64,000 nt of DNA from Desulfurivibrio sp. (GTDB lineage: Bacteria; Desulfobacterota; Desulfobulbia; Desulfobulbales; SURF-16), in assembly GCA_003605035.1 (NCBI GenBank), contig QZKJ01000118.1:18304-82303 (forward strand), written 5' to 3'. How positions within the stretch are numbered: the stretch's first letter is position 1; each line of letters begins with the position of its first letter. The position numbers were made by a program, and so were the translations under genes. Under the pieces are notes generated by a model. It did no database searches, was not told where the DNA came from, and worked only from the letters and a program-made list of their open reading frames with translations. Positions 41,266 through 64,000 of the stretch are shown here, in pieces.

Positions 41266-41640
41266 TGTTTTTGCTCCGTGAAGATATTTGGGAGGGTTGA
41301 TTTTGGCTCACCATTAACCGCAATATTTATGCCATCCATTGATGACGAGGCAGATCAGGAGGCTGGCAATGGGGTGCGTTAGCTGATAAGGGTATCGCAA
41401 GCGGCGCAACGAACAAGAAAAGGCCGCGGACAGGATGACCTGCCGGGCAGCGGCAGGGACATTCCCGTGAAGTTGCGTTAGAGGGGAAAAGTCGAGGGCC
41501 GGAATCGTTTAATCAGGAGTGGCGATGATTTTGCATAACAAAGCATGAGTTTGCAGAAAGCTGTCTGAAGAATGAGTCGCAGCCGGGCAGTACTGCCGGG
41601 CGTCGGCTGCGGCAGATAAATCCGGCAAGGAGGAAAAATC

Positions 41641-42165
41641 ATGCTGCTGACCAGCAAGAAGGCCGTTATCCTGGTGGAGACGCTCTACAATGATCGTGAA
41701 TTCTGGTATCCGTACTATCGTCTCAGGGAAGAGGGGGCGGAGGTTTGTGTGGTCGGCCCTGAGGCCGGCAGGGAGTACCGGGGCAAAGATGGCATCATGG
41801 CCAGGGCGGACAAGGGCATGAACGAGGTCCAGGCCCGGGACTATGATGCCATCATCATCCCGGGCGGCTATGCGCCTGATCATATGCGCCGGCACCCGGC
41901 CATGGTGAGCCTGGTGAAGGATTTTCACGCCGCGGGCAAAATCGTGGCAGCCATCTGCCATGCCGGCTGGATGCTCGCTTCGGCCGATATCCTCAAGGGG
42001 AGAACGGTCACCGCCTTTTTTGCCATCAAGGATGATCTGGTCCATGCCGGCGCCAATTTCGTTGACCAGGAGGTGGTCAGCGACGCTAATCTGGTCACCA
42101 GCCGCAAACCCGAAGACCTGCCGGCTTTCATGCGGGTGATCATCGACAAGATGGCGGGGCGCTAG
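41641..42165 (+). CDS. DJ-1/PfpI-family protein (intracellular protease/amidase type)
   Basis: 174 aa. IIIPGGYAPD and the nucleophile elbow AAICHAGWML. GGAGGA lies upstream of the ATG. Confidence 0.85.
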   Translation: MLLTSKKAVILVETLYNDREFWYPYYRLREEGAEVCVVGPEAGREYRGKDGIMARADKGMNEVQARDYDAIIIPGGYAPDHMRRHPAMVSLVKDFHAAGKIVAAICHAGWMLASADILKGRTVTAFFAIKDDLVHAGANFVDQEVVSDANLVTSRKPEDLPAFMRVIIDKMAGR

Positions 42166-42324
42166 CCTGAATGCCGTTGTGTGCTGGTGTCTGAACAAAC
42201 ACAAATGCAGTTAGTTGCAACGAAATGCTCAGAGGTCGGGTTAACGCTTGTGCTTGCCAGATGATCAGCATGGTCGAGCCCTGGCAAGGGAATACCCGCG
42301 GCTTCGCACTTGTCCCGCGGAAAC

Positions 42325-47859: not shown

Positions 47860-49008
47860 ATGGAAACAACCAAATTCGCTATACCTGAAATCATTTTCGG
47901 CAGAGGAAGTATCAGCTATGCGGGGCAATGTGCCCTGCGGCATGGCGCGAAAAAGGTTTTTTTAGTCAGTGATCCGGGCATTGAGGAGGTTGGCTGGGTG
48001 CAGCGCCTCATGGATATTCTCAAAGGCGAGGGCATAGACTGGATCTATTACCCCAGGGTAACCTCCAATCCCCGCGATTACCAGGTGGAGGAGGGGGCGG
48101 AATTCTATCTGAAAAACCGGGCTGATGTCATCATGGCCATTGGCGGCGGCAGCGCCATGGATACCGCCAAGGGTATTGCCATCATTGCCAGCAACGGCGG
48201 CCGGATCCGTGATTATGAAGGGGCGAACCGGGTGCAGCGGCCTCTGCCGCCCATGGTGTTCATCACCACCACCGCGGGAAGCGGCTCTGACATCTCCCAG
48301 TTCTGCATCATCACCGATGTGAAGCGCGCGGTGAAAATGTCCATTATCACCCGCACCCTGGTCCCTAATATATCCATCGTCGACCCCTTGATTTTACGCA
48401 CAAAAACAGAAAAACAGATCATCCAGTCCGCGGTAGACGCCCTGGCCCATGCCATCGAGGCGTATCTTTCCCGCATCGCCTCGCCCTTTACAATGCCGCA
48501 GTCCCTGAAAGCCATTGATCTGATTCTCCGCCATCTGCAGTCAGCCGTGGAAACCCGCTCGCTGGATTCCCTGGAGCAATTGAGCATCGCCTCCATAGCC
48601 GCCTCAATGGCCTTCAGCAATGCCGGACTCGGAGCCGAACACGCCCTGGCCCACTCCCTGGGCGGCCAGTTCGACATGAGCCACGGCGTTGTGCATCCCA
48701 TCCTGCTGGCGGCGGTGATGCGTTTTAACATGCCGTCCTGCCCTGACAGGATGGCTGATATCGGCCGGGTCATCCTTGATAAACAGCTGGCTTCCGGCCA
48801 CGAAACAGCCCTGGCGGGAATTGCCAGGCTGGAGGAGTTTTTTGCCTCTTTCAACGTTTCCCTCAGGCTGAGCGATGAGGTCGGCGAGGTTGACAAGCAG
48901 TTTCTCGAGCCGATCTGCAAAATGGCGGTCAAGGATGCCTGCAATCTGACCAATCCCAGGCAGGCCACCTGGCAGGATTTTCTGTCAATCTGCGAGGAGG
49001 TTTGGTGA
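47860..49008 (+). CDS. iron-containing (group III) alcohol dehydrogenase
   Basis: 382 aa. GGGSAMDTAKG and His-rich metal-site regions (ALAHAIE, EHALAHSLGG). Confidence 0.9.
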   Translation: METTKFAIPEIIFGRGSISYAGQCALRHGAKKVFLVSDPGIEEVGWVQRLMDILKGEGIDWIYYPRVTSNPRDYQVEEGAEFYLKNRADVIMAIGGGSAMDTAKGIAIIASNGGRIRDYEGANRVQRPLPPMVFITTTAGSGSDISQFCIITDVKRAVKMSIITRTLVPNISIVDPLILRTKTEKQIIQSAVDALAHAIEAYLSRIASPFTMPQSLKAIDLILRHLQSAVETRSLDSLEQLSIASIAASMAFSNAGLGAEHALAHSLGGQFDMSHGVVHPILLAAVMRFNMPSCPDRMADIGRVILDKQLASGHETALAGIARLEEFFASFNVSLRLSDEVGEVDKQFLEPICKMAVKDACNLTNPRQATWQDFLSICEEVW

Positions 49009-50201
49009 TGTCCGCCCCGACCACGCTTGATGATCTTATCGGCATTGAACACTGCAAACTCGGCTTTTATCAGGAACTCCAGCGCAAGGTGGAGGAGCTG
49101 AAGCACTCCAACCGTGAGCTTGAAAAGAAACGCCAGGAATTCAAGGGACTGCTGGACGCCATCACCGATCTGATGGTGGTGCTCTCCGAAGACCTCAGGA
49201 TTCAATCCGTCAACCACGTGTTTAAGGAATGGTATCCTGATGCCGACCCGAAAGGGGAATTCTGCTATAAATTTTTCCGTGACAGGAGCACCCCCTGTGA
49301 GAACTGCCCGGTGATCAAGGCTCTGGATCGTGATGAGATATGCAAGGATTCCTGCATCCATAAGGTGAAAGATAAATTCCGCCATTTTGAGTTGATTGCC
49401 TCACCGCTGAAGACGAGTCCCACCGGCGAGCGCAACGTGCTGCTTTTTAAACGGGATGTCACGGTGGAAAAGGAATTCCAGGCCCAGTTTTATCAGGCAG
49501 AGAAAATGGCCACCGTCGGGGCCCTGGCCGCCGGCGTGGCCCATGAAATAAACAACCCGCTTACCGCCATCAGCGGCTTTGCCGAAGGGCTGCGGCGCCG
49601 GCTCGGCCGTATTCACGACCAGGTGGATGAAGACCTGTACGGCGATTTTCAGGAATATACCGATACCATTATCAAGGAATGCCTGCGCTGCCGGGATATC
49701 GTCCGCACGCTGCTCACCTTCAGCCGGCCCATCGCCTCCAGTCTGTGCCCGGTGAATCTCAATGACTGCATCAACGACACCCTGTTCATCCTGAAGCATC
49801 ACTTCAAGGAGCAGCATAATGTCATCGTCAAGATCGAGTTGCATGACGAGCTGCCGCTGATCATGGGGGACGAATCGCAGCTCAAGCAGGTCATCATCAA
49901 CCTGCTGACCAATGCCCTGGATGCCAGCGGGGAAGGCGGCACCATCCTGATCAAAACCTATCCGGCGGAATCCGGCGGGGTAGCCATGCTTGTTGAGGAT
50001 TCCGGCTGCGGCATCCCGCTGGAACTGCAGGATAAGCTGTTTGAGCCCTTTTTTACCACCAAGCCGGTGGGTAAAGGAATCGGCATCGGCCTGTCCACCT
50101 GCTACACCATCGTGAAAAATCACAATGGCAGGATCAGTATGACCAGCGAGGTGGGCAAGGGCACGACATTCTGTATACATCTACCCGGAATTTCAGCATA
50201 A
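49008..50201 (+). CDS. PAS-domain sensor histidine kinase
   Basis: H-box AHEINNPL, N-box LLTNALDA, G-boxes DSGCGIP / GKGIGIGL. ATG at 49008 overlaps the adh stop (TGATG). Confidence 0.88.
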   Translation: MSAPTTLDDLIGIEHCKLGFYQELQRKVEELKHSNRELEKKRQEFKGLLDAITDLMVVLSEDLRIQSVNHVFKEWYPDADPKGEFCYKFFRDRSTPCENCPVIKALDRDEICKDSCIHKVKDKFRHFELIASPLKTSPTGERNVLLFKRDVTVEKEFQAQFYQAEKMATVGALAAGVAHEINNPLTAISGFAEGLRRRLGRIHDQVDEDLYGDFQEYTDTIIKECLRCRDIVRTLLTFSRPIASSLCPVNLNDCINDTLFILKHHFKEQHNVIVKIELHDELPLIMGDESQLKQVIINLLTNALDASGEGGTILIKTYPAESGGVAMLVEDSGCGIPLELQDKLFEPFFTTKPVGKGIGIGLSTCYTIVKNHNGRISMTSEVGKGTTFCIHLPGISA

Positions 50202-51538
50202 TGGTAAACGAAAAATACCCTGTTCTGGTTATTGACGACGAAGAGCCGATCAGAAGACTGCTGCAGAAGGAACTGGCCAACTCCGGGCGGGAGATCTTTA
50301 CTGCCGCCACGGCGGCGGAAGCAATGGCCCTGGTGCGGAGCCGCTGGTTCGATGTCATTATCATGGACCTGCGGCTGCCCGACACCACCAATCTTGATCT
50401 GCTGATCAAGGTGCGGGACTCCATTCCCCATACCGAGGTAATCATGATCACCGGCCACGGGGACATTGACAGTGCCGTGGAGGCCATGAAACTCGGGGCC
50501 TGCGACTTTATTCCCAAGCCGTTCAATCTCGACCGGCTTGATCTGGTGGTGGAAAAGGCCCACCAGCGGGTGCGCCTGTCCCGGGAAAACATGATTCTGC
50601 GCCATAAGGCCGGTTATGACCAGGGGACGGTGAAATTTATCGGCAACTCCATGGCCATCCGCAATATCCAGTTTCTGGTGGATAAGGTGGCGCCGGCCAA
50701 TATTCCGGTGCTCATCACCGGGGAGTCGGGCGTAGGCAAGGACGTGGTGGCCCATGCCATCCATGATCGTTCCGGCCGGGCGGGCAATGAGCTGATCATC
50801 AAAAACTGCGCCTCTCTGCAGAAGGATCTTGCCCGCAGCGAGCTTTTCGGCCATGTGAAGGGTTCGTTTACCGGCGCCGACGAATCCAGGGAAGGGCTCA
50901 TGTCCTACGCCCACGAGAGCACCCTGTTCCTTGACGAGATCGGCGAACTGCCCCTGGAGGTGCAGGCCTCCCTGTTGCGCATGCTGGAGACCCAGACCTA
51001 CCGCCGGGTCGGTGAAAAGGATGAACGGCGGGTGGATATCCGCTTCCTGTTCGCCACCAACCGCGACCTGGCCGATGAGGTCAAAAAAGGCCGCTTCAAC
51101 GAGGCGTTCTATCATCGCATCAATGTCTTTAACATTGATATTCCTCCTTTGCGTGAACGTAAGGAGGATCTCCCCCTGCTGGTTGATTATTTTCTCACCT
51201 CGCTCAGCCCTGATTCCACCACCTACCGGATGGTGCAGAACGCCATGGACTGCGTGCTCCGCTATGACTGGCCGGGCAACATCCGGGAGTTGCGCAACGT
51301 TATCGAGCGCAGCATTATTCTTGCTGAAAACGGCATCATCACCGAACGTTGTCTGCCCCGCGAACTGGTGGTGAGCGCGGAAACTTCCGAGGCGAGCATC
51401 ACCCTTGAGTCGGTGGAAAAAAAGCACATCCTCAAGATGCTGAATTTCTATAACGGCAACCGGCGCAAGGCCGCTGAGGCCCTTGGCATCAGCCGCAAAA
51501 CCCTGTATCGCAAGATGAGCCAGTTCAACGTCGAGTGA
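50201..51538 (+). CDS. sigma54-dependent response regulator (NtrC family: REC-AAA+-Fis HTH)
   Basis: 445 aa. Receiver IIMDLRLPD, Walker A GESGVGKD, GSFTGA (GAFTGA variant), and C-terminal HTH AAEALGISRKTLYRKM. Confidence 0.92.
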   Translation: MVNEKYPVLVIDDEEPIRRLLQKELANSGREIFTAATAAEAMALVRSRWFDVIIMDLRLPDTTNLDLLIKVRDSIPHTEVIMITGHGDIDSAVEAMKLGACDFIPKPFNLDRLDLVVEKAHQRVRLSRENMILRHKAGYDQGTVKFIGNSMAIRNIQFLVDKVAPANIPVLITGESGVGKDVVAHAIHDRSGRAGNELIIKNCASLQKDLARSELFGHVKGSFTGADESREGLMSYAHESTLFLDEIGELPLEVQASLLRMLETQTYRRVGEKDERRVDIRFLFATNRDLADEVKKGRFNEAFYHRINVFNIDIPPLRERKEDLPLLVDYFLTSLSPDSTTYRMVQNAMDCVLRYDWPGNIRELRNVIERSIILAENGIITERCLPRELVVSAETSEASITLESVEKKHILKMLNFYNGNRRKAAEALGISRKTLYRKMSQFNVE

Positions 51539-52865: not shown

Positions 52866-52881
52866 TGGCACATGAGTTGCT
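52866..52881 (+). promoter_or_regulatory. sigma54 promoter upstream of the mop cluster
   Basis: TGGCAC-ATGAG-TTGCT, an exact -24/-12 consensus. The next convincing downstream CDS is mop at 53372, which implies a leader of about 480 nt. Confidence 0.7.
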
Positions 52882-53371: not shown

Positions 53372-56089
53372 ATGATCAGAAAAAAACTATACGTCAATGG
53401 TATAGAAAAAAATCTTATCGTGGATGCTGATGAAAGTCTGGCGGAAGTTCTGCGCAAAAGGCTGAGACTCACCGGCACCAAGATCGGCTGCGGCAAGGCC
53501 CAGTGTGGCGCCTGCAATGTCATCATGGACGGCAAGCTGACCAGGTCCTGCGTGACCAAGATGTCACGGGTGGCTGATGGCGCCGCCGTTACCACCATTG
53601 AGGGTATCGGCACCCCGGACGACCTTCATGCCCTGCAGATGGCCTGGATGGTGCATGGCGGCGCCCAGTGCGGCTTCTGTACCCCCGGTTTCATCGTTTC
53701 CGCCAAGGCCCTGCTTGATGCCAATGCCGACCCTTCCCGTGAAGAGGTGCGTGACTGGTTTCAGAAAAACCGCAATGCCTGCCGCTGCACGGGATACAAG
53801 CAGCTGGTTGATGCGGTGCAGGATGCCGCCAGGGTGCTGAAAGGCGAAATCAGCCTGAAAGACCTGGCCTACAAGATTCCGGCGGACGGCAAGGTGTTCG
53901 GCACCCATCAGCCCCGGCCGAGCGCTGCCGCCAAGGTTACCGGCACTTGGGATTTCGGAGCGGACCGCGGCCTGCAGCTTCCCGATGAGACCCTGCAGCT
54001 GGCCCTGGTGCAGGCTGAGGTTTCCCACGCCAATATCCTCTCCGTGGATACCAGCGAGGCGGAAAAAATGCCCGGCGTCTTCAAGGTGGTCACCGCCAGG
54101 GACATCAAGGGCAAGAACCGCATCACCGGGCTGATCACCTTCCCCACCAACAAGGGTGACGGCTGGGACCGCCCCATCCTCTGCGATGAAAAGGTCTTCC
54201 AGTTCGGCGATGCAATTGCCATCGTCTGCGCCGATACCGAAAAGCACGCCAAAGAGGCGGCTAAGATGGTCAAGGTGCAGTTGGAAGAGCTGCCGGCCTA
54301 CATGAGCGCGCCGGCGGCCATGGAAGAGGATGCCCTGGAAATCCATCCCGGCACTCCGAACGTCTATTTTATCCAGAAGATCGCCAAGGGTGAGGAGACC
54401 GCCCCTATTTTCGACAAGGCGGAGGTCGTCATCGAGGGCAACTATTATGTCGGCCGCCAACCCCATATGCCCATTGAACCTGATGTCGGTTTTGCCTATT
54501 ACAACGACGACAACAAGCTGGTCATCCATTCCAAATCCATCGGCGTCCATCTCCATCTCTATATGATCGCCCCGGGGCTCGGCGTGGCGCCGGAAGACCT
54601 GATCCTGGTGCAGAACAACACCGGCGGCACCTTCGGCTACAAGTTCAGCCCCACCATGGAGGCCCTGGTCGGCGCCGCGGCCATTGCCACCGGCCGTCCC
54701 GTATTTCTCTGCTACGATTATTTCCAGCAGCAGACCTATACCGGCAAACGCTCGCCTTTCTTCATGAATGTCAAGATGGCCACGGACAAGAACGGCATGA
54801 TCAAGGCCATGGAAACCGACTGGACCGTTGACCACGGACCCTATTCGGAATTCGGCGACCTGCTCACCCTGCGCGGCGCCCAGTTCATCGGCGCGGGCTA
54901 TGACATCAGAAATATCCGCGGCGAAGGCCGCACGGTGTGTACCAACCATGCCTGGGGTTCCGCCTTCCGCGGCTACGGCTCGCCCCAGTCCGAGTTCGCC
55001 TCCGAGGTTTTGATGGACGAACTGGCGGAAAAACTCGGCATGGATCCCCTGGAACTGCGCTACAAGAACTGTTACCGCAAGGGCGCCACCAGCCCCACCG
55101 GCCAGGACCCCGAGGTCTATTCCCTGCCGGAGATGCTCGATATCCTGCGTCCCAAATATGAGGCGGCCAAAAAGAAGGTTGCCGCCACCTCCACCGATGC
55201 GGTAAAACGCGGGGTAGGCATCGCTCTGGGCGTTTACGGTTGCGGTCTGGACGGCCCGGATACGGCGGAAGTGGATGTTGAACTGAACGCCGACGGCACG
55301 GTAACTGTCTACAACTGCTGGGAAGACCATGGCCAGGGAGCTGACATGGGAAGCCTGGGCACCGCCCATGAGGCCTTAAAACCCCTGGGAATTTCCGGCG
55401 ATCGCATTAAACTGGTGATGAACGACACGAGCATCTGCCCCAACTCCGGGCCTGCCGGCGGCAGCCGCAGCCAGGTGGTGGTCGGTCAGGCCATCCGGGT
55501 CGCCTGCGAGGAGCTGATCAAGGCCATGAAAAAGGCTGACGGTTCCTTCCGTACCTGCGAGGAAATGAAGGCGGAAAACATCCCCACCAGGGTGAACGGC
55601 AAATGGTCGGCCCCGGCCGGGGCCTGCGATGAAAACGGCCAGGGCAATCCCTTCTGCTGCTACATGTACGGTATGTTCATGGCCGAGGTAGCCGTGGAAG
55701 TGGCCACCGGCAAGACCACGGTTGAAAAAATGACCTGCGTGGCCGATGTCGGCAAGATCAACAACAAACTGGTGGTGGACGGTCAGCTTTACGGCGGTAT
55801 GGCCCAGGCCATCGGTCTTGCCCTGACCGAGGATTTCGAGGACATCAAAAAGCACTCAACCCTGGTTGGCGCGGGATTTCCTTATATCAAACAGATCCCT
55901 GACGACATGGAGCTGTTCTATGTGGAAACCCCGCGTCCCGACGGTCCCTTCGGCGCCTCGGGTGTCGGCGAATTACCGCTGACCTGCCCCCATGCCGCCG
56001 TGATCAACGGTATTTATCATGCCTGTGGCGCCCGAGTCAGAAACCTGCCGGCCCTGCCGGAAAAGGTGCTGGCCGCCATGAAGAAGTAA
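53372..56089 (+). CDS. mop: molybdopterin (MCD)-dependent aldehyde oxidoreductase, Desulfovibrio gigas Mop type
   Basis: 905 aa single chain. N-terminal plant-type [2Fe-2S] GCGKAQCGACNVIMDG, second [2Fe-2S] CGFCTPGF...CRCTGY, then a xanthine-oxidase-family Mo domain with no FAD domain. Length and architecture match D. gigas MOP (about 907 aa). Confidence 0.92.
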   Translation: MIRKKLYVNGIEKNLIVDADESLAEVLRKRLRLTGTKIGCGKAQCGACNVIMDGKLTRSCVTKMSRVADGAAVTTIEGIGTPDDLHALQMAWMVHGGAQCGFCTPGFIVSAKALLDANADPSREEVRDWFQKNRNACRCTGYKQLVDAVQDAARVLKGEISLKDLAYKIPADGKVFGTHQPRPSAAAKVTGTWDFGADRGLQLPDETLQLALVQAEVSHANILSVDTSEAEKMPGVFKVVTARDIKGKNRITGLITFPTNKGDGWDRPILCDEKVFQFGDAIAIVCADTEKHAKEAAKMVKVQLEELPAYMSAPAAMEEDALEIHPGTPNVYFIQKIAKGEETAPIFDKAEVVIEGNYYVGRQPHMPIEPDVGFAYYNDDNKLVIHSKSIGVHLHLYMIAPGLGVAPEDLILVQNNTGGTFGYKFSPTMEALVGAAAIATGRPVFLCYDYFQQQTYTGKRSPFFMNVKMATDKNGMIKAMETDWTVDHGPYSEFGDLLTLRGAQFIGAGYDIRNIRGEGRTVCTNHAWGSAFRGYGSPQSEFASEVLMDELAEKLGMDPLELRYKNCYRKGATSPTGQDPEVYSLPEMLDILRPKYEAAKKKVAATSTDAVKRGVGIALGVYGCGLDGPDTAEVDVELNADGTVTVYNCWEDHGQGADMGSLGTAHEALKPLGISGDRIKLVMNDTSICPNSGPAGGSRSQVVVGQAIRVACEELIKAMKKADGSFRTCEEMKAENIPTRVNGKWSAPAGACDENGQGNPFCCYMYGMFMAEVAVEVATGKTTVEKMTCVADVGKINNKLVVDGQLYGGMAQAIGLALTEDFEDIKKHSTLVGAGFPYIKQIPDDMELFYVETPRPDGPFGASGVGELPLTCPHAAVINGIYHACGARVRNLPALPEKVLAAMKK

Positions 56090-56188
56090 GCGGTACCGGC
56101 CCCTCCGGGCCAGAAAAAAAGTGGAGAGGGCAGCCACCCGGCTGTCCCCTCGCTTCATAACCTTTCAACCAGAAGGTTCCCACCCACC

Positions 56189-58489
56189 ATGGAGCAACAG
56201 CAACTCCGCAAGCTCGAAGCGACCTGCATACAGGAGGAATCACCCCAGTGCTCGGCCGCCTGCCCGATCCATATTGATGTCCGGGCCTTCATGGCCTGTC
56301 TGGCCGGGAAGGACTGGCGGGGCGCCAGGCGCGTGCTTGACCGGACCATGCCTTTTGCCGACATTGTCGGCCGCATCTGCGACGAACCCTGCCGCCAGGC
56401 CTGCAAGCGGTCCGAGATCGGCGATCCCCTGGCGGTTCACCGCCTGGAAAGATTCTGCGTGACCACTCAGCCCATGGTGCTCAGGTCACCCCGGCTGCCT
56501 GCCAAGGGAGGCAGCGTGGCGGTGATCGGTTCCGGCCTGGCCGCCATGACCGCAGCCCTTGACCTGGCCCGCAAGGGCCGCACCGCGGTGATGCTGACCA
56601 GTGATGAGCAGATCGGTGGCTCCCTGCGGCAGTATGCGGAGGAGATGCTGCCGGCCCAGGTGCTGGCCGTCGGCGTGGAGACCCTCTACTCCTATGGCGT
56701 CATCCTGCACTTCGGCTGCTCGCTCAACCAGGAATTTCTTGCAACGGTCAGACAGGATCATGATGCCGTTTTTCTGGACAGGGACTGCCGGGGCCTTGCC
56801 ACCCTGGCCGTTGATTGCACCCAGCCGGACCCCGTGACTCTTGCCATCGGCCTGGATGGCTGTTTTGCCGGCGGCGGCAGCACGGCAAACGGTTTTTCCG
56901 TCATGAAACAGGTGGAGGACGGCCGCCGGGCCGCTCTATCCATCGAACGCTATCTGCAGAAGGTATCACTTACCGCCCAGCGGGAACGGGAGGGCGTCTG
57001 CCCGACCCGGCTGTTTACCCAAATCGCCGGCATCCCGCCCCTCAGCGAGGTGCTGCCAGCCGACCCGGCCGCAGGCTATACCGCCCGGGAGGCCGTAGCG
57101 GAAGCGGCTCGCTGCATCCAGTGCGAGTGCATGGAATGCGTCAAGCAGTGCGCCTTCCTGCAGGAATTCAACGATTACCCCAAACGGCTGGTACGCAAAA
57201 TATATAACAACGAGGCCATTGTCCAGGGCACCCGCACCGCCAACAAAATGATCAACTCCTGCATGCTCTGCGGCCAGTGCACGGTGATCTGCCCCCACGA
57301 CTTCCCTCTGAACACGGTCTGCCGCACCACCAGGGCCAACATGGTGGCAAGCGCCACCATGCCGCCCTCGGCCCATGAGTTTGCCCTGCAGGACATGGAG
57401 TTCAGCCTCGGTACGTTCGCCGCCCTGGCCCGCCACCAGCCTGGCCGGGACAGCAGCCGCCTCCTCTTCTTTCCCGGCTGCCAGCTGGCCGGCTCCGCGC
57501 CACAGACGGTGGAACAGACCTACCTGCATCTGACCCGTCATCTGGACGGCGGGGTAGGGCTGATGCTTGGCTGCTGCGGCATTCCCGCCCACTGGTCCGG
57601 CCGGCAGGAGCTTTTCCACCGGACCATGCAGACCCTGGTGGCCGAAGTCGGCAGACTGGGCGATCCCCTCATTGTCACTGCCTGTTCCAGTTGCTATACC
57701 GTGTTCAAGGAATTTGCCCCGCAGCTTACGGTGCAGTCCCTCTGGCAGCTGCTGGACAAGATGGAACTCCCTGCTAATGCAGCGGCCCCGCCGCAGCCCA
57801 TGGCCATTCATGACCCCTGCACGGTCAGGCATGAGCCGCAGATACGCGCAAGCGTGCGTAATATCATAAAAAAAATCGGCATCAGCACCGAGGAACATCC
57901 CTATGCCGGCGAACTGACCGACTGCTGCGGCTACGGCGGACTGATGCAGTTCGCCAATGTGCCGCTAGGCGAAAAGGCCGCCCGCGCCAAGGCCCGGCGC
58001 AGCGAGTGCGACGGGCTGGCCTACTGCGCCATGTGCCGGGACAATATGGCCGCCACCGGCCGGCGTGTCGCCCATCTGCTTGACTATCTCTTCCCCGCGG
58101 CAAGCCGGCAGGACCCCCTGCTGCGGCCCAACCCCGGTTTTTCAGGACGCCATGAAAACCGGGCCAGACTCAAGCAGCATCTGCTTACCACCCTTTGGCA
58201 GGAGGAACCGCCGATGAACCCCGCTCACAAAGAAATCAAGCTGGTTATCGCCCCGCAGCTCATGGAGCTGCTGGACAAAAGACATATTCTGGAGGACGAC
58301 ATCCGGAAGGTCATTGGGCAGGCCGAGCAGAGCGGCAGACGGCTGGTTGATCCGGAAAACGGTCACTTTCTGGCCAGTTACCGGCCGGTGCGGGTGACCT
58401 ACTGGGTGGAGTATCAGCCGGGCCGGCAGGGATTTATCGTCCACAACGCCTACAGTCATCGCATGATCCTGCCGGGAGAAGCCAAATGA
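56189..58489 (+). CDS. fusion protein: GltD-like NAD(P)H/FAD oxidoreductase + 2x[4Fe-4S] + two CCG (HdrD/GlcF-like) domains + C-terminal extension
   Basis: 766 aa. N-terminal Cys cluster CSAACPIH...CDEPCRQAC, dinucleotide fold VAVIGSGLAAMTAALDLARKG, CIQCECMECVKQC + CMLCGQCTVICP, CCG-type segments FFPGCQ...GCCG and IHDPC...TDCCGYGG, then CDGLAYCAMCRD and a ~100-aa tail. Confidence 0.85.
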   Translation: MEQQQLRKLEATCIQEESPQCSAACPIHIDVRAFMACLAGKDWRGARRVLDRTMPFADIVGRICDEPCRQACKRSEIGDPLAVHRLERFCVTTQPMVLRSPRLPAKGGSVAVIGSGLAAMTAALDLARKGRTAVMLTSDEQIGGSLRQYAEEMLPAQVLAVGVETLYSYGVILHFGCSLNQEFLATVRQDHDAVFLDRDCRGLATLAVDCTQPDPVTLAIGLDGCFAGGGSTANGFSVMKQVEDGRRAALSIERYLQKVSLTAQREREGVCPTRLFTQIAGIPPLSEVLPADPAAGYTAREAVAEAARCIQCECMECVKQCAFLQEFNDYPKRLVRKIYNNEAIVQGTRTANKMINSCMLCGQCTVICPHDFPLNTVCRTTRANMVASATMPPSAHEFALQDMEFSLGTFAALARHQPGRDSSRLLFFPGCQLAGSAPQTVEQTYLHLTRHLDGGVGLMLGCCGIPAHWSGRQELFHRTMQTLVAEVGRLGDPLIVTACSSCYTVFKEFAPQLTVQSLWQLLDKMELPANAAAPPQPMAIHDPCTVRHEPQIRASVRNIIKKIGISTEEHPYAGELTDCCGYGGLMQFANVPLGEKAARAKARRSECDGLAYCAMCRDNMAATGRRVAHLLDYLFPAASRQDPLLRPNPGFSGRHENRARLKQHLLTTLWQEEPPMNPAHKEIKLVIAPQLMELLDKRHILEDDIRKVIGQAEQSGRRLVDPENGHFLASYRPVRVTYWVEYQPGRQGFIVHNAYSHRMILPGEAK

Positions 58490-58695
58490 GCACATTTTCC
58501 TTCATAAGCGAGACAGCCTGGCGCTGCGCCAGTTGCAATAAGGAACTGCATCCCCGCAAGGTGAATGTGGAATATATGGGCTCGGTGTTCAATGTTGAGC
58601 TGATGGTCTGTCCTGTCTGCGGCTTTGTGTTGATTCCCGAGAATCTGGCCCTCGGCAAGATGCTCGAGGTCGAGCAGCTGCTGGAAGACAAATGA
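58486..58695 (+). CDS. 69-aa four-Cys zinc-ribbon/rubredoxin-like protein
   Basis: CASC...CPVC pairs. ATGA overlap with the upstream gene. Confidence 0.7.
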   Translation: MSTFSFISETAWRCASCNKELHPRKVNVEYMGSVFNVELMVCPVCGFVLIPENLALGKMLEVEQLLEDK

Positions 58696-58705
58696 GCCAA
58701 ACCCC

Positions 58706-59440
58706 ATGACCAGCGCAACCTTGACACATACCCCTCTTCTCTGTGAACAGCAGGAACTGCGGCAGCTCACCGGCGACACACTGCGGCCCGGGGGGCTGGC
58801 GCTGACCAGCAGGGCCATGCAGTACTGCGCTCTGCCTGCCCGCAGCACCATTCTCGATGTGGGCTGCGGGTATGGCCGGACCATGGCCCTGCTTGCTGCG
58901 CAGTTTGCCCTGGCCCCGACCGGGCTGGATCCCTCGCCAGCCATGCTGCGGCAGGCGGCCTGCAGCTGTCCCGGCCTGCCGCTGCTGCAGGCCACGGCCG
59001 CCGCCATCCCCGTCCGCAACGGTTTTTTTGCTGCCCTGATCTCGGAATGCGTGCTGTCGCTGGCCGGCAATATGCCGGCCTGCCTGCGGGAAATGGGGCG
59101 GGTGCTGGCGCCGGGCGGCAAACTGGTGCTGACCGACATCTACGCCCGCAAACCAGACTCATTGCCTGCCGCCCGGCAGGGTGCGATCCGCAGCTGCTTT
59201 CACGGCGCGGTCTGCCTGGAAACCCTGGAGACATCCCTGCGGGACGCCGGCTTTACCATCCGGCTCTTTGAGGACCACACCGCCATGCTGCGGCAGCTGG
59301 CCGGGCAGATCATCTTCACTTATGGCAGCCTGGCCGCCTTCTGGCAGCTGTTCATGGGCGCGGAGCAGGCCGCCTGCACCTGCAGTTCCCTGGCCACGGC
59401 CAAGCCCGGTTATTACCTGCTCATCGCCGAAAAGGAGTAA
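58706..59440 (+). CDS. class I SAM-dependent methyltransferase
   Basis: 244 aa. Motif I ILDVGCGYGRTMALLA and post-I/II segments PGGKLVLTD. Confidence 0.85.
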   Translation: MTSATLTHTPLLCEQQELRQLTGDTLRPGGLALTSRAMQYCALPARSTILDVGCGYGRTMALLAAQFALAPTGLDPSPAMLRQAACSCPGLPLLQATAAAIPVRNGFFAALISECVLSLAGNMPACLREMGRVLAPGGKLVLTDIYARKPDSLPAARQGAIRSCFHGAVCLETLETSLRDAGFTIRLFEDHTAMLRQLAGQIIFTYGSLAAFWQLFMGAEQAACTCSSLATAKPGYYLLIAEKE

Positions 59441-59445
59441 GCGCC

Positions 59446-59901
59446 ATGGATGACACCGCACTCCGCATCATGCAGCTCAGCTCCCAGGGGCTCTGCTGCA
59501 GCCAGATTCTGATGAAGCTGGCCCTTGAAGACATGGGTGAGGAAAACCTTGCCCTGGTGCGCGCCATGTCCGGCCTCTGCCAGGGGCTGGGAGCAGGGGA
59601 GATGTGCGGGGCGGCCAGCGGCGCGGCCTGCGTCATCGCCCTCTATGCGGCCAAGGGGGACGGCAGTGAAGAGGAATCGCCGGATTATCAGCTGATGCTG
59701 GCCGATTTCACGGCATGGTTCACCGGCACAGCCCCGGGCAGGTGGGGAGGAATCAGATGCGATGAGATCATCCCCGCCGGGGCGGCCATGGAAATGCGCA
59801 AGTGCGGCGATATCATTGTCGAAAGTCGCAATAAGGTTCTGGAAATCCTTGCCGCCTACGGTGTTGACCCGAGTGTCTCCAGAGAGCTGCGCCATGGCTG
59901 A
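59446..59901 (+). CDS. C_GCAxxG_C_C-family putative redox-active protein
   Basis: 151 aa. N-terminal CCSQIL, central GEMCGAASGAACVI and a distal Cys pair (RCDEI...KCGDI), matching the family's namesake Cys pattern. Confidence 0.8.
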   Translation: MDDTALRIMQLSSQGLCCSQILMKLALEDMGEENLALVRAMSGLCQGLGAGEMCGAASGAACVIALYAAKGDGSEEESPDYQLMLADFTAWFTGTAPGRWGGIRCDEIIPAGAAMEMRKCGDIIVESRNKVLEILAAYGVDPSVSRELRHG

Positions 59902-61282
59902 TGGTACCCGTACAGATATCCTGGCCCGGACGGAGAGCGTCTGTCCGACCTGCCTGAGGCGTCTGCCGGCAATGCGGGAAAAGCAGGGCGAGGATGTCTA
60001 TCTGGTGAAAAAATGCCCGGAGCACGGAGAATTCAGGACCATCATCTGGCGGGGGCCGCTGCCTTTTTCCTCCTGGCAGCGACCGAAAAAGGCCTCCCCG
60101 CCCAGGCAGACCTTCACCGATACGGAAAAGGGCTGCCCCTTTGACTGCGGGCTCTGCCCGGACCACGGCCAGCATACCTGTACGGCCCTGATCGAGGTCA
60201 CTTCCCGCTGCAATCTGCGCTGCCAGGTTTGTTTTGCCGCTGCCGGCGATCACGGGGCTGCTGATCCGCCGCTTGAGCGGATCGCTTTCTACTATGACCG
60301 GCTGCTGGCGGCCAGCGGCCCCTGCAATATCCAATTGTCCGGCGGCGAGCCCACGGTACGTGAAGACCTGGCCGAGATCATCCGCTTAGGCCGGGACAAA
60401 GGCTTTTCCTTTCTGCAGCTCAACACCAACGGCATCCGTCTGGCCGAGGAGGAAGGCTATGCCAGGAGTCTGAAGGCGGCCGGCCTGTCATCCGTCTTTC
60501 TGCAGTTTGACGGCATCAGCGACGAAGTGCACCAGGCCCTGCGGGGACGGGCCCTGGCGGCAGTCAAGGAAAGGGCACTGGTCAACTGCGGCTTTGCCGG
60601 CCTCGGCGTGGTGCTGGTGCCTACCATCATGCCAGGGGTCAACTCCGGGGAAATCGGCAGCATCATCAACTATGCGGCCCGCTTTTCCCCCACGGTGCGG
60701 GGCGTGCATTTTCAACCGGTGAGCTATTTCGGCCGCTACCCGCATCAGCCCCATAACAGCGCCCGCATCACCCTGCCGGAGATATTGCTGTTGCTGGAAG
60801 AACAGACGAGGGGCAAGGTGGCGGCCAGTCTCTTCGCCCCGCCGGCCTGTGAACACGCCCTCTGCTCCTTTCATGCCAATTTTCTGGTGCAGGACAATTA
60901 CCGGCTGCAGGGGATCACCTCCTGGCAGCAGACCTGCTGTGCAGCCGCGGAAGCCAACGTTGAGATCCCCTCAGCCGTGGAGGGCCGGGAGAAAAACATC
61001 TCTTTTACCGCCAGGCAATGGGCCGCCCCCAAGGCCTGCGTTTGCCCGCCCACCATGGTGCAGGAAAATGAGGATGAGCTGGATTACTTTCTCAGAAGGG
61101 CCAAGACCCATACCTTTTCCATCTCGGGCATGGCCTTTCAGGATGCCTGGAATCTGGACCTGGAACGGCTGCAGGGGTGCTGCATCCATGTGGTTTCGCC
61201 GGAGGGGAAGGTGATCCCCTTCTGCGCCTATAACCTGACATCAAGCGAGGGCCGGGCCCTGCACCGGACTTGGGACGTCTGA
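59894..61282 (+). CDS. radical SAM protein with N-terminal zinc-ribbon and CxxxCxxCxxH pre-motif
   Basis: Start at MADGTRTD (ATG at 59894, 8-nt overlap with the upstream gene). CPTC...CPEHGEF, GCPFDCGLCPDHGQHTC, and the radical SAM triad SRCNLRCQVCFA. Confidence 0.85.
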   Translation: MADGTRTDILARTESVCPTCLRRLPAMREKQGEDVYLVKKCPEHGEFRTIIWRGPLPFSSWQRPKKASPPRQTFTDTEKGCPFDCGLCPDHGQHTCTALIEVTSRCNLRCQVCFAAAGDHGAADPPLERIAFYYDRLLAASGPCNIQLSGGEPTVREDLAEIIRLGRDKGFSFLQLNTNGIRLAEEEGYARSLKAAGLSSVFLQFDGISDEVHQALRGRALAAVKERALVNCGFAGLGVVLVPTIMPGVNSGEIGSIINYAARFSPTVRGVHFQPVSYFGRYPHQPHNSARITLPEILLLLEEQTRGKVAASLFAPPACEHALCSFHANFLVQDNYRLQGITSWQQTCCAAAEANVEIPSAVEGREKNISFTARQWAAPKACVCPPTMVQENEDELDYFLRRAKTHTFSISGMAFQDAWNLDLERLQGCCIHVVSPEGKVIPFCAYNLTSSEGRALHRTWDV

Positions 61283-62619
61283 TGAAAAGGACAACGGTTG
61301 AAGAGATCCTGCTCAGCAGCATGAAGGCCGCAGCAGGGCAGCTGCCTGACCGGGCCGCCATCGAAAGGTACCAGTTCGGCAGACTGCGGCAGACCATCGC
61401 GCATGCCGCGGCAAAGAGCCCCTTTTACCGGGACAGACTGGCGGGAGTCAGGCCGGCGGAGATCACGGACCACGGCTCCCTGTCCCGTTTGCCCTTTACC
61501 AGCGAAGATGATCTGCGCCGCCGGGGCCAGCAGATGCTCTGCGTCAGCCAGGATGAGGTGGCCCGCATCATCACCATGCAGAGTTCCGGCACCACCGGCC
61601 CGCCCAAGCGGCTGTTTTTCAGCGAGGAGGACCTGGAGCGCACCCTTGATTTTTTCCATCACGGCATGCGCGCCCTGGTCAGGCCGGGGCAGAAGGTGCT
61701 GATCCTGCTACCCGGCGCCACCCCGGACTCCACCGGCGATCTGCTGGCCCGCGGCCTGGCGAGGATGGAGGTGGCCAGCCGCATCTACGGGCTGGTGGCT
61801 GATCCGCTGCAGGCGGCCGCGGAGGTGTTTGCCGAAGGTTTTGACGCCCTGGTCGGCTTTCCGGTGCAGGTGCTGGCCCTGTCCCGCACCCCGGCCGGGC
61901 AGTCCGTGCCGGCCGGACGGATCAAATCCGTGCTGCTCTGCTCGGATTACATCCCGCGGACCGTGTGCGACGAAGTATCCGCCGCCTGGCGCTGCCGGGT
62001 CTTCAGCCATTACGGCACCGTGGAAAGCGGGCTGGGTGGCGGAGTGGAGTGCGAAGCCCTGTGCGGCTGTCATCTGCGGGAAGCGGACCTGCTCTTTGAA
62101 GTGGTCTGCCCGCGGACCGGCGTCGCCCTGCCCCCGGGTCAGTGGGGTGAACTCGTCTTTTCCACCCTGAGCCGCCGGGCCATGCCTCTGATCCGCTACC
62201 GGACCGGCGATCGGGGCCGTCTGCTTGCCGGGCCCTGCAGGTGCGGCAGCCCGCTTGCCAGGCTGGACAAGGTGCGCGGCAGGATCAGCCAGGTGCGGCA
62301 ACTGGCCAACGGTCAGACCCTCTCCCTGGCCCTGCTGGATGAACTGCTGCTCGCCATTCCCGGGGTGCTGGATTTTCAGGCAGTGCTCGACCGGGACAAG
62401 GATGGCGAGCGACTCACGGTCCGTCTGACCACTCTTCCGGCAAAGCGGGACCAGTCGTTGCAGCAGGCTGCCCTGCAGCTCAAGGAGCTTGCCCGACTGC
62501 GGGATTTGCAGATTGGTATGGCGGCAAACCCTGGCGGCCTCATCAACCGAGGTAAACGCATAATCGAAGACAACAGAGGAAAAATCAGCCATGAAACAGC
62601 TTATCAGGCAGCTTTGTGA
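61282..62619 (+). CDS. PaaK/coenzyme-F390-synthetase-like adenylate-forming (AMP-dependent) ligase
   Basis: About 445 aa. Phosphate-binding loop SSGTTGPPKR, YGTVESG, and YRTGDRG near the C-terminal hinge. ATG at 61282 shares one nt with the radical SAM stop. Confidence 0.85.
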   Translation: MKRTTVEEILLSSMKAAAGQLPDRAAIERYQFGRLRQTIAHAAAKSPFYRDRLAGVRPAEITDHGSLSRLPFTSEDDLRRRGQQMLCVSQDEVARIITMQSSGTTGPPKRLFFSEEDLERTLDFFHHGMRALVRPGQKVLILLPGATPDSTGDLLARGLARMEVASRIYGLVADPLQAAAEVFAEGFDALVGFPVQVLALSRTPAGQSVPAGRIKSVLLCSDYIPRTVCDEVSAAWRCRVFSHYGTVESGLGGGVECEALCGCHLREADLLFEVVCPRTGVALPPGQWGELVFSTLSRRAMPLIRYRTGDRGRLLAGPCRCGSPLARLDKVRGRISQVRQLANGQTLSLALLDELLLAIPGVLDFQAVLDRDKDGERLTVRLTTLPAKRDQSLQQAALQLKELARLRDLQIGMAANPGGLINRGKRIIEDNRGKISHETAYQAAL

Positions 62620-63637
62620 CATATTGGCCGGCGGTGAAGACCTGGTGCTGGCCACCGTTTCGAGCAAGAACGGCTCCGCTCCCCGCATGGCCGGCGCCCG
62701 CATGATCGTCCGGCAGGACGGCCGTATTGCCGGCACCATCGGCGGCGGCAAGGTCGAGGCCGTGGCCATTGCCGAGTCGGTGCAGGCCTTTGCCCATAAA
62801 AACTCCGGCCGGTGCTTTTTTGATCTGACCAACGCCGATGCCGCCGGCACGGACATGATCTGCGGCGGCACCATGGAAATATTCCTGGATTACATTGCCG
62901 CGGGGCCGGCCAATCTGCAGGTGTTCTCGACCCTGCTGACCGCCCTTGACAGCGGCCGCCGGGTCTCCTTTGTCAGCAAACTGAATGACCGGGACGGTGG
63001 CGGTGCCCGCTTTGTCATTGCCGATGGCGGCAAGACAAACTATAGCCAGGCCCCGGAGGCGCTGCTGTCCGCCGTCAAAAAACTCCGCCTCTCCTCCTCG
63101 GCCCCTTCGGTGGTCACCCATGACAACGAGGAGTATCTGGTTTCCTACTTTGCCATCCCCGGCGACCTCTTTCTGCTGGGCGCCGGTCATGTGGCGGCCT
63201 GTACCGCCGAGGCCGCGGCCAGGGTTGGCTTTAAGGTCATCGTCATGGATGACCGGTCCGAATTCGCCAACCGGCAGCGCTTCCCCATGGCGGACGAGGT
63301 GGTGGTGCTTGACTCCTTTGCCGATTGTTTTCAGGGGTATGACATCAGCCACGACAGCTACCTGGTCATCGTCACCAGGGGACACATGCATGACCGGGAC
63401 GTGCTGGAGCAGGCGCTCTCCACCAACGCCGGCTATGTGGGCATGATCGGCAGCCGCAAAAAGCGTGATGCCATTTACACCAATCTGCTGGCCAAGGGCA
63501 CGGCGCCTGAGCAGCTGGGCCGGGTTCATTGTCCCATCGGCCTGGCCATCGAGGCGGACACCCCGGAGGAGATCGCCGTCAGCATCGTCGGTGAACTGAT
63601 CCAGCAGCGCGCCAGGGGGCAGAACCGTGGAAAGTGA
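62591..63637 (+). CDS. xdhC: XdhC/CoxI-family molybdenum-cofactor insertion chaperone
   Basis: 348 aa. N-terminal XdhC_CoxI region (LATVSSKNGSAPRMAGARMIV) and C-terminal Rossmann-like region (LFLLGAGHVA, VTRGHMHD, YVGMIGSRKK). Confidence 0.85.
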   Translation: MKQLIRQLCDILAGGEDLVLATVSSKNGSAPRMAGARMIVRQDGRIAGTIGGGKVEAVAIAESVQAFAHKNSGRCFFDLTNADAAGTDMICGGTMEIFLDYIAAGPANLQVFSTLLTALDSGRRVSFVSKLNDRDGGGARFVIADGGKTNYSQAPEALLSAVKKLRLSSSAPSVVTHDNEEYLVSYFAIPGDLFLLGAGHVAACTAEAAARVGFKVIVMDDRSEFANRQRFPMADEVVVLDSFADCFQGYDISHDSYLVIVTRGHMHDRDVLEQALSTNAGYVGMIGSRKKRDAIYTNLLAKGTAPEQLGRVHCPIGLAIEADTPEEIAVSIVGELIQQRARGQNRGK

Positions 63638-64000
63638 GCTTGCCGCCATCATCCCCGCCGCCGGGCTCTCCTCCAGGATGGGAGAGCTGAAGGCCCTGCT
63701 CCCCCTGGGCCAGACCACTGTGCTGGGCCATCTTATCGATCTCTTCCACCGCTGCGGCATCCGGGATGTTATCGTCGTCACCGGCCACCGGGCCGGGGAA
63801 GTCGGCCAGGCTGCCCTGGCGGCCGGCGCCCGGGTGGTGCACAATGGCGACTATGAACAGGGCATGTTTTCCTCGATCAAAAGCGGCATCCGGGCCCTGG
63901 CGTCGGAAACCAGGGGCTTTTTTCTGCTGCCGGTGGATATCCCGCTGATCCGTCCGGGCACCATCAGGCTGCTGGCCGAGGCCTTCACCTCCTTCCCGCT
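63627..64000 (+). CDS. MobA/MocA-like NTP transferase (probable molybdenum cofactor cytidylyltransferase), 3'-truncated by window end
   Basis: Not in the ORF track. GTG at 63627 opens a frame with no stop up to position 64000. Translation VESELAAIIPAAGLSSRMGELKALLPLG...FFLLPVDIPLI carries the MobA-like N-terminal signature. 11-nt overlap with xdhC. Confidence 0.8.
   Translation, partial: MESELAAIIPAAGLSSRMGELKALLPLGQTTVLGHLIDLFHRCGIRDVIVVTGHRAGEVGQAALAAGARVVHNGDYEQGMFSSIKSGIRALASETRGFFLLPVDIPLIRPGTIRLLAEAFTSFP

Follow-up and report, generated by a model that had tools for sequence, protein, structure and literature searches.

In the window analysed here, a stretch of 64,000 nucleotides (nt) from contig QZKJ01000118.1 of a Desulfurivibrio sp. 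metagenome-assembled genome (MAG), the gene mop for a molybdopterin-dependent aldehyde oxidoreductase was followed on the same strand by eight genes, here numbered G2 to G9. The last two, encoding an XdhC-type maturation factor and a MocA-like transferase, are the partners expected of an enzyme with molybdopterin cytosine dinucleotide (MCD). The locus raises the question of what the genes in between, G2 to G7, contribute. The best explanation, given a probability of roughly 0.4, is that they hold an accessory or maturation system for low-potential molybdenum or tungsten (Mo/W) pterin enzymes, centred on the C-terminal tail of the small protein G3. As part of the same reading, this cassette would be neither a pterin modification specific to MCD nor a catabolic route.

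Gene content of the mop operon

Families were assigned by NCBIfam profile searches with curated cut-offs, Pfam domains and a PDB sequence search. The nine genes lie on the + strand in the order mop-G2-G3-G4-G5-G6-G7-G8-G9. When re-derived, their coordinates and all eight junctions agreed to the nucleotide with an earlier prediction made from the window's sequence (the original prediction). They are listed below with the profile score of each protein against the cut-off of its family.

mop, 53372-56089, + strand: molybdopterin-dependent aldehyde oxidoreductase of 905 amino acids (aa); NF045668, 1709 bits vs 1100; stop TAA, then a 99-nt spacer to G2
G2, 56189-58489, + strand: flavo-iron-sulfur/CCG fusion; NF045663, 1020.7 bits vs 530; Pfam Fer4_20, Fer4_17, CCG and FAD-binding; ATGA overlap with G3 at 58486-58489
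G2, NfnB/GltD-like module with 2x[4Fe-4S] and flavin adenine dinucleotide (FAD), about 56219-56686, + strand
G2, 4Fe-4S dicluster, 57110-57304, + strand
G2, HdrB/HdrD-type CCG pair, 57464-57988, + strand
G2, C-terminal domain (G2C), about 58217-58486, + strand: elsewhere also a free 90-aa protein and part of fusions with G3
G3, 58486-58695, + strand: four-Cys zinc-ribbon protein of 69 aa; NF045645 'DVU_1557 family redox protein', 105.6 bits vs 60; PF24292 / DUF7479; 10-nt gap to G4
G4, 58706-59440, + strand: class I S-adenosylmethionine (SAM) methyltransferase; NF045667 'DVU_1556 family methyltransferase', 233.6 bits vs 155; 5-nt gap to G5
G5, 59446-59901, + strand: NF045669 'DVU_1555 family C-GCAxxG-C-C protein', 159.1 bits vs 103; PF09719; 8-nt overlap with G6
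G6, 59894-61282, + strand: NF045646 'radical SAM (seleno)protein TrsS', 680.8 bits vs 490; N-terminal zinc-ribbon/rubredoxin-like domain; 1-nt overlap with G7
G7, 61282-62619, + strand: PaaK-like adenylate-forming ligase; NF045666 'DVU_1553 family AMP-dependent CoA ligase', 457.7 bits vs 300; 29-nt overlap with G8
G8, 62591-63637, + strand: NF045664 'XdhC family aldehyde oxidoreductase maturation factor', 424.4 bits vs 350; Pfam XdhC_CoxI and XdhC_C; 11-nt overlap with G9
G9, 63627-64000, + strand: NF045665 'DVU_1551 family NTP transferase' (MocA-like), 162 bits vs 315 at profile positions 2-117 of 359; GTG start; continues beyond the end of the window

The eight complete genes exceeded their curated cut-offs. 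G9 matched its profile in part and scored below the cut-off because only 124 of its approximately 360 residues fall inside the window; a full-length homologue, which carries an extra HD domain, reached 418.6 bits against 315. With respect to known MCD maturation, G8 belongs to the XdhC family and G9 has a MocA-like/MobA-like NTP-transferase domain. The G9 family differs from MocA in its HD domain, and the full-length homologue scored 127.6 bits against the MocA cut-off of 186. The XdhC and MocA-like partners called for by the original prediction were thereby found (NF045664 over its cut-off, NF045665 in part), and the 'DVU_155x family' names that it had offered proved to be real NCBIfam names that apply here.

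No in-frame stop was present in the nine genes. Start codons were chosen among alternatives for G6 (ATG 59894 vs ATG 59762), G7 (ATG 61282 vs TTG 61270) and G9 (GTG); those of G6 and G7 were backed by homologue alignments and by the first matched profile positions. No terminator-like site was seen at the operon junctions, the mop-G2 spacer included. The arrangement is far beyond chance, and the same order recurs across phyla. With its tight packing and terminator-free junctions, the locus is one conserved operon, as had been proposed.

Mop contained the Pfam domains Fer2, Fer2_2, Ald_Xan_dh_C and MoCoBD_1/2, corresponding to 2x[2Fe-2S] and Mo-binding domains, and matched the crystal-structure sequences 1SIJ/1VLB (Desulfovibrio gigas) and 1DGJ (Desulfovibrio desulfuricans) with 1465-1477 bits. 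It is an orthologue of these crystallised enzymes. The N-terminal part of G2 matched NfnA/NfnI/DPD entries in the PDB. Its CCG domain was placed at residues 426-507, and weak GlcF, GlpC and TfrB matches extended over residues 301-600. In its domains, G2 has the HdrB/HdrD-type pattern of a CCG pair adjoining a 4Fe-4S dicluster.

The exact proteins of the window are in GenBank as RJX24904-RJX24909 (Desulfurivibrio sp. MAG), and 97%-identical copies in another MAG already carry DVU_155x family names given by the Prokaryotic Genome Annotation Pipeline. The nine genes of the window, collinear on one strand, match the models named for the Desulfovibrio vulgaris neighbourhood DVU_1551-DVU_1559 (NF045663-NF045669, NF045645 and NF045646) in the order that the DVU numbers imply, and the window differs from that neighbourhood in nothing of kind. 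The locus is another instance of this catalogued DVU_155x/TrsS neighbourhood, whose family definitions are bioinformatic. In the literature searched, no tested function was found for G2 to G7, and only proteome listings were found for DVU_1551 to DVU_1559. D. vulgaris papers list only DVU_1559, as "Aor" (PMC10920352), and a 2026 review (PMC13188914) lists TrsS, citing Haft & Tolstoy 2025 (mSystems 10:e0141724). As far as this literature goes, the module is conserved but biochemically uncharacterised, in keeping with the original prediction.

Linkage to molybdenum and tungsten enzymes

A genome scan anchored on TrsS (G6) gave 577 confirmed relatives, of which the best 80 loci, ranked by likeness to the window, were analysed; presence was counted over those loci with enough flanking DNA to be assessed. 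The 80 genomes came from at least seven phyla, among them Desulfobacterota (several orders), Chloroflexota, Bacillota, Actinomycetota, Acidobacteriota and Campylobacterota. Alongside TrsS, mop was present in 58/60 loci, G2 in 67/68, G3 in 73/73, G4 in 71/74, G5 in 74/75 and G7 in 75/75. XdhC was present in 47/71 loci (absent from 24/71) and the MocA-like gene in 40/67 (absent from 27/67). Since these last counts lie below those of the orphan genes, it is the 'unexplained' genes that stay constant and the 'expected' MCD factors that vary. In the 80 genomes, the orphan genes are tied to mop more tightly than XdhC or MocA, and both of the latter are dispensable to the cassette.

Recurrent neighbours of the mop-type loci were a MoeA/MogA-type MoCF_biosynth protein, ModABC/ModE, a CobC-like histidine phosphatase (directly after G9, in 23/80 loci) and Fe-alcohol dehydrogenases. 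In two such loci (L081, 10432-13273; L070, 14926-15549) the MocA-like-HD transferase was followed by the histidine phosphatase and the MoCF_biosynth protein, a nucleotide- or phosphate-processing trio next to MCD synthesis. Three loci considered as exceptions (L012, L030 and L058) were set aside, their weak or partial mop matches being truncated, frameshifted or chimeric MAG calls. No TGA codon aligned to a Cys, as expected for selenocysteine (Sec), was found in the cassette genes of the 80 loci, and N-terminally short TrsS calls (433 aa) were a matter of start-codon calling, not of Sec.

The cassette also occurred away from mop. In Geobacter hydrogenophilus (L080) and Desulforhabdus (L044), G2C-G3-G4-G5-TrsS-G7 stood without mop, the body of G2, XdhC and MocA, and a gene of the AFOR family adjoined. 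A metagenome scan anchored on the Geobacter TrsS returned 34 loci of that separate TrsS clade with the same layout. A BamB-type AFOR gene lay next to the cassette in 16/34 of these, most of the others being too short to assess, and a BamB-type tungsten subunit did so in both genomes. No window-type mop, XdhC or MocA-like gene was present in the 34 metagenomic loci and the two genomes; the sole mop matches in this clade (L106 and L107) were weak, at 34-37% identity. Over their full length, the BamB-type genes matched PDB 4Z3W with 959 bits (L090) and 815 bits (L044). A BamC-like polyferredoxin gene followed the BamB-type gene, two MoeA genes and a Mo/W-type regulator were nearby, and L044 also contained HdrA-like and MvhD-like genes. 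One such locus had the following order:

L090, BamB-type locus: Mo/W-type HTH-PBP regulator, G2C, G3, G4, G5, TrsS, G7, BamB, BamC, P-loop protein, MoeA, MoeA

The idea that the cassette tracks aldehyde chemistry, which took the AFOR neighbours for tungsten aldehyde oxidoreductases, was dropped, as the PDB sequence search identified most of them as BamB-type, the tungsten subunit of class II benzoyl-CoA reductase. The only locus with a true AOR-type tungsten enzyme was L066 (Syntrophobacteraceae), where this enzyme was encoded directly before G4-G5-TrsS-G7, with mop-G2-G3 further on. A minimal form, MoeA-G2C-G3-TrsS-G7, was found in L088 without G4 and G5 and with no pterin enzyme within 19 kilobases; L094, L100 and L110 had the same minimal core. 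In L088 (12343-14867) a membrane-type polyferredoxin (Fer4_5) and an ApbE flavin transferase came after the minimal cassette. In L080 (226-4908) a second G2C-DUF7479 fusion gene overlapped the start of a gene for a DMSOR-family (Fdh-alpha-like) molybdo- or tungsto-enzyme, followed by MoxR-type AAA and CoxE-like VWA genes, a hint that a third family of pterin enzymes also has G3-type partners.

Standing as it does beside unrelated tungsten enzymes, the cassette is not specific to Mop or its cofactor. Its minimal core is G2C-G3-TrsS-ligase, and what the variants have in common is a Mo/W pterin enzyme or the genes for its metal insertion, neither aldehyde chemistry nor MCD. The original prediction was to fall if the orphan genes occurred widely without mop or any Mo-hydroxylase; by that measure it does not hold as stated, since they stand without mop, XdhC and MocA in the 34 metagenomic loci and in at least two genomes, beside BamB-type tungsten enzymes or MoeA. 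Its proposal that they supply a modified pterin or other ligand fails in the form specific to MCD and Mop because XdhC and the MocA-like gene are so often absent from the TrsS loci, and survives in a generalised form, the maturation of Mo/W pterin enzymes or their partners. Its suggestion that G2 is the redox partner of Mop fits the data, the G2 body being present in mop-type loci and absent without mop. No BamB-maturation paper mentioning the cassette was found in the literature searched.

The G3 tail and its putative partners

G3 of the window ends in ...LEDK-COOH. Its family, DUF7479, formed 186 clusters at 50% identity in 1.84 billion representatives. Among the 150 best DUF7479 representatives, 142/150 had a C-terminal Lys, 123/150 ended in EDK and, of the latter, 113 in LEDK itself; the remaining sequences resemble frameshifts or false matches. 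The LEDK end was also present in 24/24 BamB-type G3 copies and in 73/76 copies from the genome loci. The invariant residues were Y30, C42, C45, E63, E67 and K69. DUF7479 was always located at the extreme C-terminus, and its only fusion partners were full-length G2, the CCG half of G2 and the approximately 90-residue G2C. In 11 G2C-G3 fusions the tail residues E, E, D and K were invariant, and two of these fusions had lost zinc-ribbon cysteines. The free G2C protein (90 aa, L044) was encoded immediately before G3. Where Mop was duplicated, each copy had its own G3 (L038; Clostridium ljungdahlii, PMC5640608), and L080 likewise had a G3 for each oxidoreductase paralogue. C. ljungdahlii probably has just one copy each of G4, TrsS and the ligase, judging by the locus-tag numbers in PMC5640608. 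AlphaFold gave G3 a zinc-ribbon hairpin modelled with confidence and, after it, a C-terminal helix of lower confidence, and G2C-G3 a well-defined two-domain model with a predicted template modelling score (pTM) of 0.75.

TrsS is a close homologue of GDGT-MAS (Tes), the structurally characterised archaeal tetraether lipid synthase (PDB 7TOL), which it matched with E=9e-92 over residues 11-317 and 401-448. The two share the N-terminal zinc-ribbon/rubredoxin-like domain, the radical SAM core (CxxxCxxC at C106/C110/C113) and most cluster cysteines; the aligned residues of TrsS were C17/C20/C41/H44, C81/C85/C88, C106/C110/C113, C232, C429/C430 and C444. TrsS differs in an unrelated central stretch of 80 residues, in the invariant HGQHTC, C319/C324 and C348/C349, and in a context of Mo/W enzymes rather than lipid synthesis. 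Against the Tes equivalog NF045702 it scored 360.3 bits, under the cut-off of 450. The window's TrsS has Cys only and no Sec. In the Tes mechanism, the substrate carbon radical is joined to a sulfide of an auxiliary cluster before the C-C bond forms, which makes C-C or C-S chemistry at an unactivated carbon plausible for TrsS. A role for TrsS as a pterin C-methylase, suggested by the Pfam name 'HMPTM', was dropped because the name is not evidence: we take 7TOL to be Methanocaldococcus jannaschii MJ0619, once annotated as a pterin methylase, so that the source of the name is presumably the very protein since characterised as GDGT-MAS.

The runner-up NCBIfam match of G4 was arsenite methyltransferase (ArsM), at 55.8 bits vs a cut-off of 263. 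Like ArsM, G4 has a Rossmann SAM site, and it keeps the two cysteines that bind As(III): Cys115 and Cys164, at least 90% conserved in 62 orthologues, align with Cys174 and Cys224 of ArsM (ISNCVCNL / GECLGGA). It differs in having neither the conserved N-terminal Cys44/Cys72 pair nor an ars context. The Cys pair suggests that the methyl acceptor may be a soft atom (S, Se or As-like) or dithiol-bound. In G5, Cys 18, 54, 105 and 120 were at least 90% conserved in 61 orthologues; no solved structural relative of this protein was found. G7 matched phenylacetate-CoA ligases in the PDB with E=2e-28 and fell below the cut-offs of the PaaK equivalog models (139.2 vs 700 and 113.8 vs 646). Its adenylation motifs (P-loop SGT.G..KR, MPL.RY..GD and Lys425-Arg426) were at least 90% conserved in 72 orthologues, and the Lys of the Lys425-Arg426 pair, in the C-terminal domain, is provisionally taken as the adenylation Lys.

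Read as an accessory or maturation system, the operon would have three layers. Mop and the flavo-iron-sulfur/CCG protein G2 would be the enzyme and its dedicated redox partner; XdhC and the MocA-like/HD transferase would finish and insert MCD; and G2C, G3, G4, G5, TrsS and G7 would make up the accessory cassette, which travels with low-potential Mo/W pterin enzymes of unrelated families and with their metal-insertion genes. G3 may be a small zinc-ribbon adaptor docked on or fused to G2C, with the ...LEDK-COOH tail as its working end. G7 would activate or load this tail, at the C-terminal carboxylate or the Lys amine, and the Tes-like TrsS would tailor the attached group, with G4 and G5 assisting where present. 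The chemistry is probably sulfur- or selenium-centred, and the CCG/flavin module of G2 would exchange electrons with the tail. We infer that the cassette acts in maturation rather than catabolism, and that G3 is its target or carrier. That the tail bears a covalent group is doubtful. Equally speculative is the fuller version, in which G3 is a new protein-borne carrier or prosthetic arm: its LEDK tail would be loaded by the PaaK-like ligase and tailored by TrsS, with the ArsM-like methyltransferase and a Cys/Sec relay where present, giving an S/Se group that serves very-low-potential Mo/W pterin enzymes such as Mop and the BamB type. If this were true, Hdr-like redox chemistry would have a third case of a dedicated carrier protein besides lipoyl-LbpA/sHdr and the C-terminal thiocarboxylate carriers.

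Several known systems resemble such an arrangement. The sHdr-LbpA system of sulfur oxidisers is said, in work of Cao et al. from 2018 in eLife, to combine an Hdr-like complex with a lipoate-binding protein, its own ligase and radical SAM lipoyl synthases. The cassette shares with it the logic alone, namely a CCG/Hdr redox protein, a small carrier with an essential Lys, an adenylate-forming ligase and a radical SAM enzyme. There is no homology: the zinc ribbon of G3 is not a lipoyl domain, the ANL/PaaK fold of G7 is not LplA, and the Tes-like TrsS is not LipA/LipS. Carriers that work through a C-terminal tail include MoaD/ThiS with MoeB/ThiF, HypE with HypF, and LysW with LysX, LysW being a zinc-ribbon protein with an acidic tail. 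G3 is likewise small, has an invariant extreme C-terminus and is encoded beside an ATP-dependent activating enzyme. Unlike theirs, its tail is LEDK and not GG, PRIC or EDWGE, and G7 is of a different superfamily. LysW was not retrieved by Foldseek with the G3 model. By this comparison, the cassette appears to share its logic with sHdr-LbpA, MoaD/MoeB, HypE/HypF and LysW/LysX, without homology, and to be a member of none of them.

A number of points count against the proposed accessory system. For the C-terminal carriers known to us, the activating enzyme is E1-like or of the ATP-grasp type rather than a PaaK-like ligase. High-resolution structures of D. gigas Mop (e.g., 1VLB) contain ordinary MCD, and to our knowledge they have no extra subunit, which makes a covalent change to the pterin, or tight binding of G3, less likely. 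The G3 tail, predicted to be helical with predicted local distance difference test (pLDDT) values of 53-67, may be only a docking helix, and Foldseek searches with the G3 or G2C-G3 models returned only generic zinc ribbons (MqsA, ZifS; E>0.06) or noise. The PaaK-like ligase beside BamB could simply be an aryl-CoA ligase. The linkage to TrsS arises partly by construction, because the loci were anchored on TrsS and taken as the best 80 per scan; the survey covered TrsS-bearing loci. Finally, Haft & Tolstoy 2025, who named TrsS, may offer a different and better-founded proposal.

Possible, though somewhat unlikely, is a reading in which the cassette matures the metal-pterin centre itself, by S/Se delivery to Mo/W or by pyranopterin tailoring, with G3 and G5 as a relay, G7 as activator and TrsS performing a radical step. 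This would suit the Cys-rich proteins, the ArsM-like Cys pair in G4 and the Sec variants in the TrsS and C-GCAxxG-C-C families, which are indicated by NCBIfam names and by a table in the 2026 review (PMC13188914). The cassette is, moreover, always among cofactor genes (XdhC, MocA-HD, MoCF_biosynth, ModABC/ModE, MoeA x2, P-loop protein), and XO-family, AOR-family and possibly DMSOR-family enzymes share the pterin cofactor. The standard MCD of the D. gigas crystal structures speaks against it, however, and by itself it leaves the G2-G3 fusions and the invariance of the G3 tail without an explanation. Nor is there an unexplained ligand in Mop or BamB, the W site of BamB being accounted for by two dithiolenes, Cys322 and water (PMC12096430). 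Quite unlikely is a catabolic role, also put forward in the original prediction, in which G7 makes an acyl- or aryl-CoA from the acid produced by Mop (or from benzoate, with BamB), TrsS and G4 modify the substrate, and G2, G3 and G5 carry electrons. Phenylacetate-CoA ligases are indeed nearest to G7, many loci have the ligase gene immediately ahead of bamB, genes for Fe-alcohol dehydrogenases and an alcohol-type sensor system are nearby, and Mop and Adh proteins have been treated as an ethanol pathway in D. vulgaris (PMC10920352). Yet G7 is far below the PaaK cut-offs, many hosts are not known as degraders of aromatics, and genes for beta-oxidation or ring cleavage are not conserved alongside the cassette; the minimal MoeA-G2C-G3-TrsS-ligase loci without an oxidoreductase, the G3 tail and the one-G3-per-enzyme pattern are all left unexplained.

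Very unlikely is the view that Mop, G2, G3 and G5 form an electron-transfer chain, possibly bifurcating and disulfide-linked, with G4, TrsS and G7 co-transcribed for an unrelated process. In C. ljungdahlii, Mop, the FAD-CCG fusion, the four-Cys protein and the C_GCAxxG_C_C protein are indeed duplicated as a unit; expression of the first of the two tandem sets rose on syngas and/or H2/CO2, and the paper calls for study (PMC5640608). The NfnB-like and CCG modules of G2 would fit as well. This view does not account for the linkage of G7 to TrsS in 75/75 loci, nor for TrsS and the ligase staying with G2C-G3 when Mop, the G2 body, G4 and G5 are absent. Hardly credible, and rejected on genomic context, is a lipid role, with TrsS as a bacterial tetraether or membrane-spanning lipid synthase and the operon modifying lipids. 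The match to GDGT-MAS, Tes as the second-best NCBIfam match, and the proposal that bacterial Tes homologues are synthases of branched glycerol dialkyl glycerol tetraethers (brGDGT; PMC8941075) speak for it. TrsS scored below the Tes cut-off, however, with residues 318-400 unaligned with 7TOL; no conserved lipid-synthesis gene was present in 160 loci, and the context was always a Mo/W enzyme and cofactor genes.

Control of the operon, neighbouring features and significance

Upstream of mop, a promoter consensus and three genes bear on control of the operon:

sigma-54 (-24/-12) promoter consensus TGGCACATGAGTTGCT, 52866-52881, + strand: exact match, approximately 490 nt before the mop start
ErcA-like Fe-alcohol-dehydrogenase-like protein, 47860-49008, + strand: NCBIfam ErcA 394.6 bits, below the 550 cut-off
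sensor histidine kinase, 49002-50201, + strand: NCBIfam AtoS-like, 240.7 bits
sigma-54-dependent response regulator, 50201-51538, + strand: NCBIfam AtoC/NtrC-like, 379/366 bits
second exact sigma-54 consensus TGGCACAACTTTTGCT, 8547-8562, - strand: far from the operon

The window contained two exact sigma-54 consensus matches vs 0.12 expected by chance, and sites resembling the consensus were present upstream of mop in 8/54 related loci. As far as the sequence allows, the best explanation is that sigma-54 would drive the operon as a single unit. The ErcA-like protein, kinase and response regulator (47860-51538) are its probable regulators, by their adjacency to the sigma-54 promoter, and together with the promoter they suggest alcohol- or aldehyde-responsive control. 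A riboswitch in the 490-nt mop leader was considered and dropped, the Rfam scans having given no match at gathering thresholds nor at E<=1. The mop-G2 spacer (56090-56188) folded into two or three stable hairpins (-41.6 kcal/mol, z = -2.9) without a U-run; these might serve in mRNA processing or stability and give Mop a stoichiometry different from that of the downstream genes.

Elsewhere in the window, the only Rfam match was an 86-nt tRNA with a long variable arm at 29932-30017 (+ strand), which would be tRNA-Leu(UAA) from an anticodon loop CUUAAAA read by eye. Unrelated to the operon, 39256-44469 (- strand) encodes the glycogen debranching enzyme GlgX (42325-44469, 1061 bits) and a weakly matching alpha-amylase-family open reading frame.

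The homology of TrsS to Tes carries a warning of its own. TrsS would pass the BLAST criteria by which "bacterial Tes homologues" are used as brGDGT markers (PMC8941075; bioRxiv 10.1101/2024.06.25.600576), and its hosts overlap the taxa flagged as brGDGT candidates (Chloroflexota, Desulfobacterota and Acidobacteriota), so that some brGDGT biomarker assignments may be wrong. TrsS-type Tes homologues were seen in mop operons of L068 (Acidobacteriaceae MAG), L011-L079 (Chloroflexota) and others. This warning, the association with BamB and MoeA, the minimal core, the LEDK tail with the G2-G3 fusions and the ArsM-type Cys pair in G4 may be new, but part of this may already be in Haft & Tolstoy 2025.

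Overall, Mop has served for decades as a model among molybdenum enzymes, and among tungsten enzymes class II benzoyl-CoA reductase is a landmark. A four- to six-gene cassette that accompanies Mop and BamB across at least seven phyla is nevertheless unaccounted for in the literature searched. G3 is a protein of 7.8 kDa, and D. vulgaris is genetically tractable. With a defined function, the cassette would become a further step in the maturation of Mo/W enzymes or in their electron transfer, and it could explain the difficult heterologous production of such enzymes.

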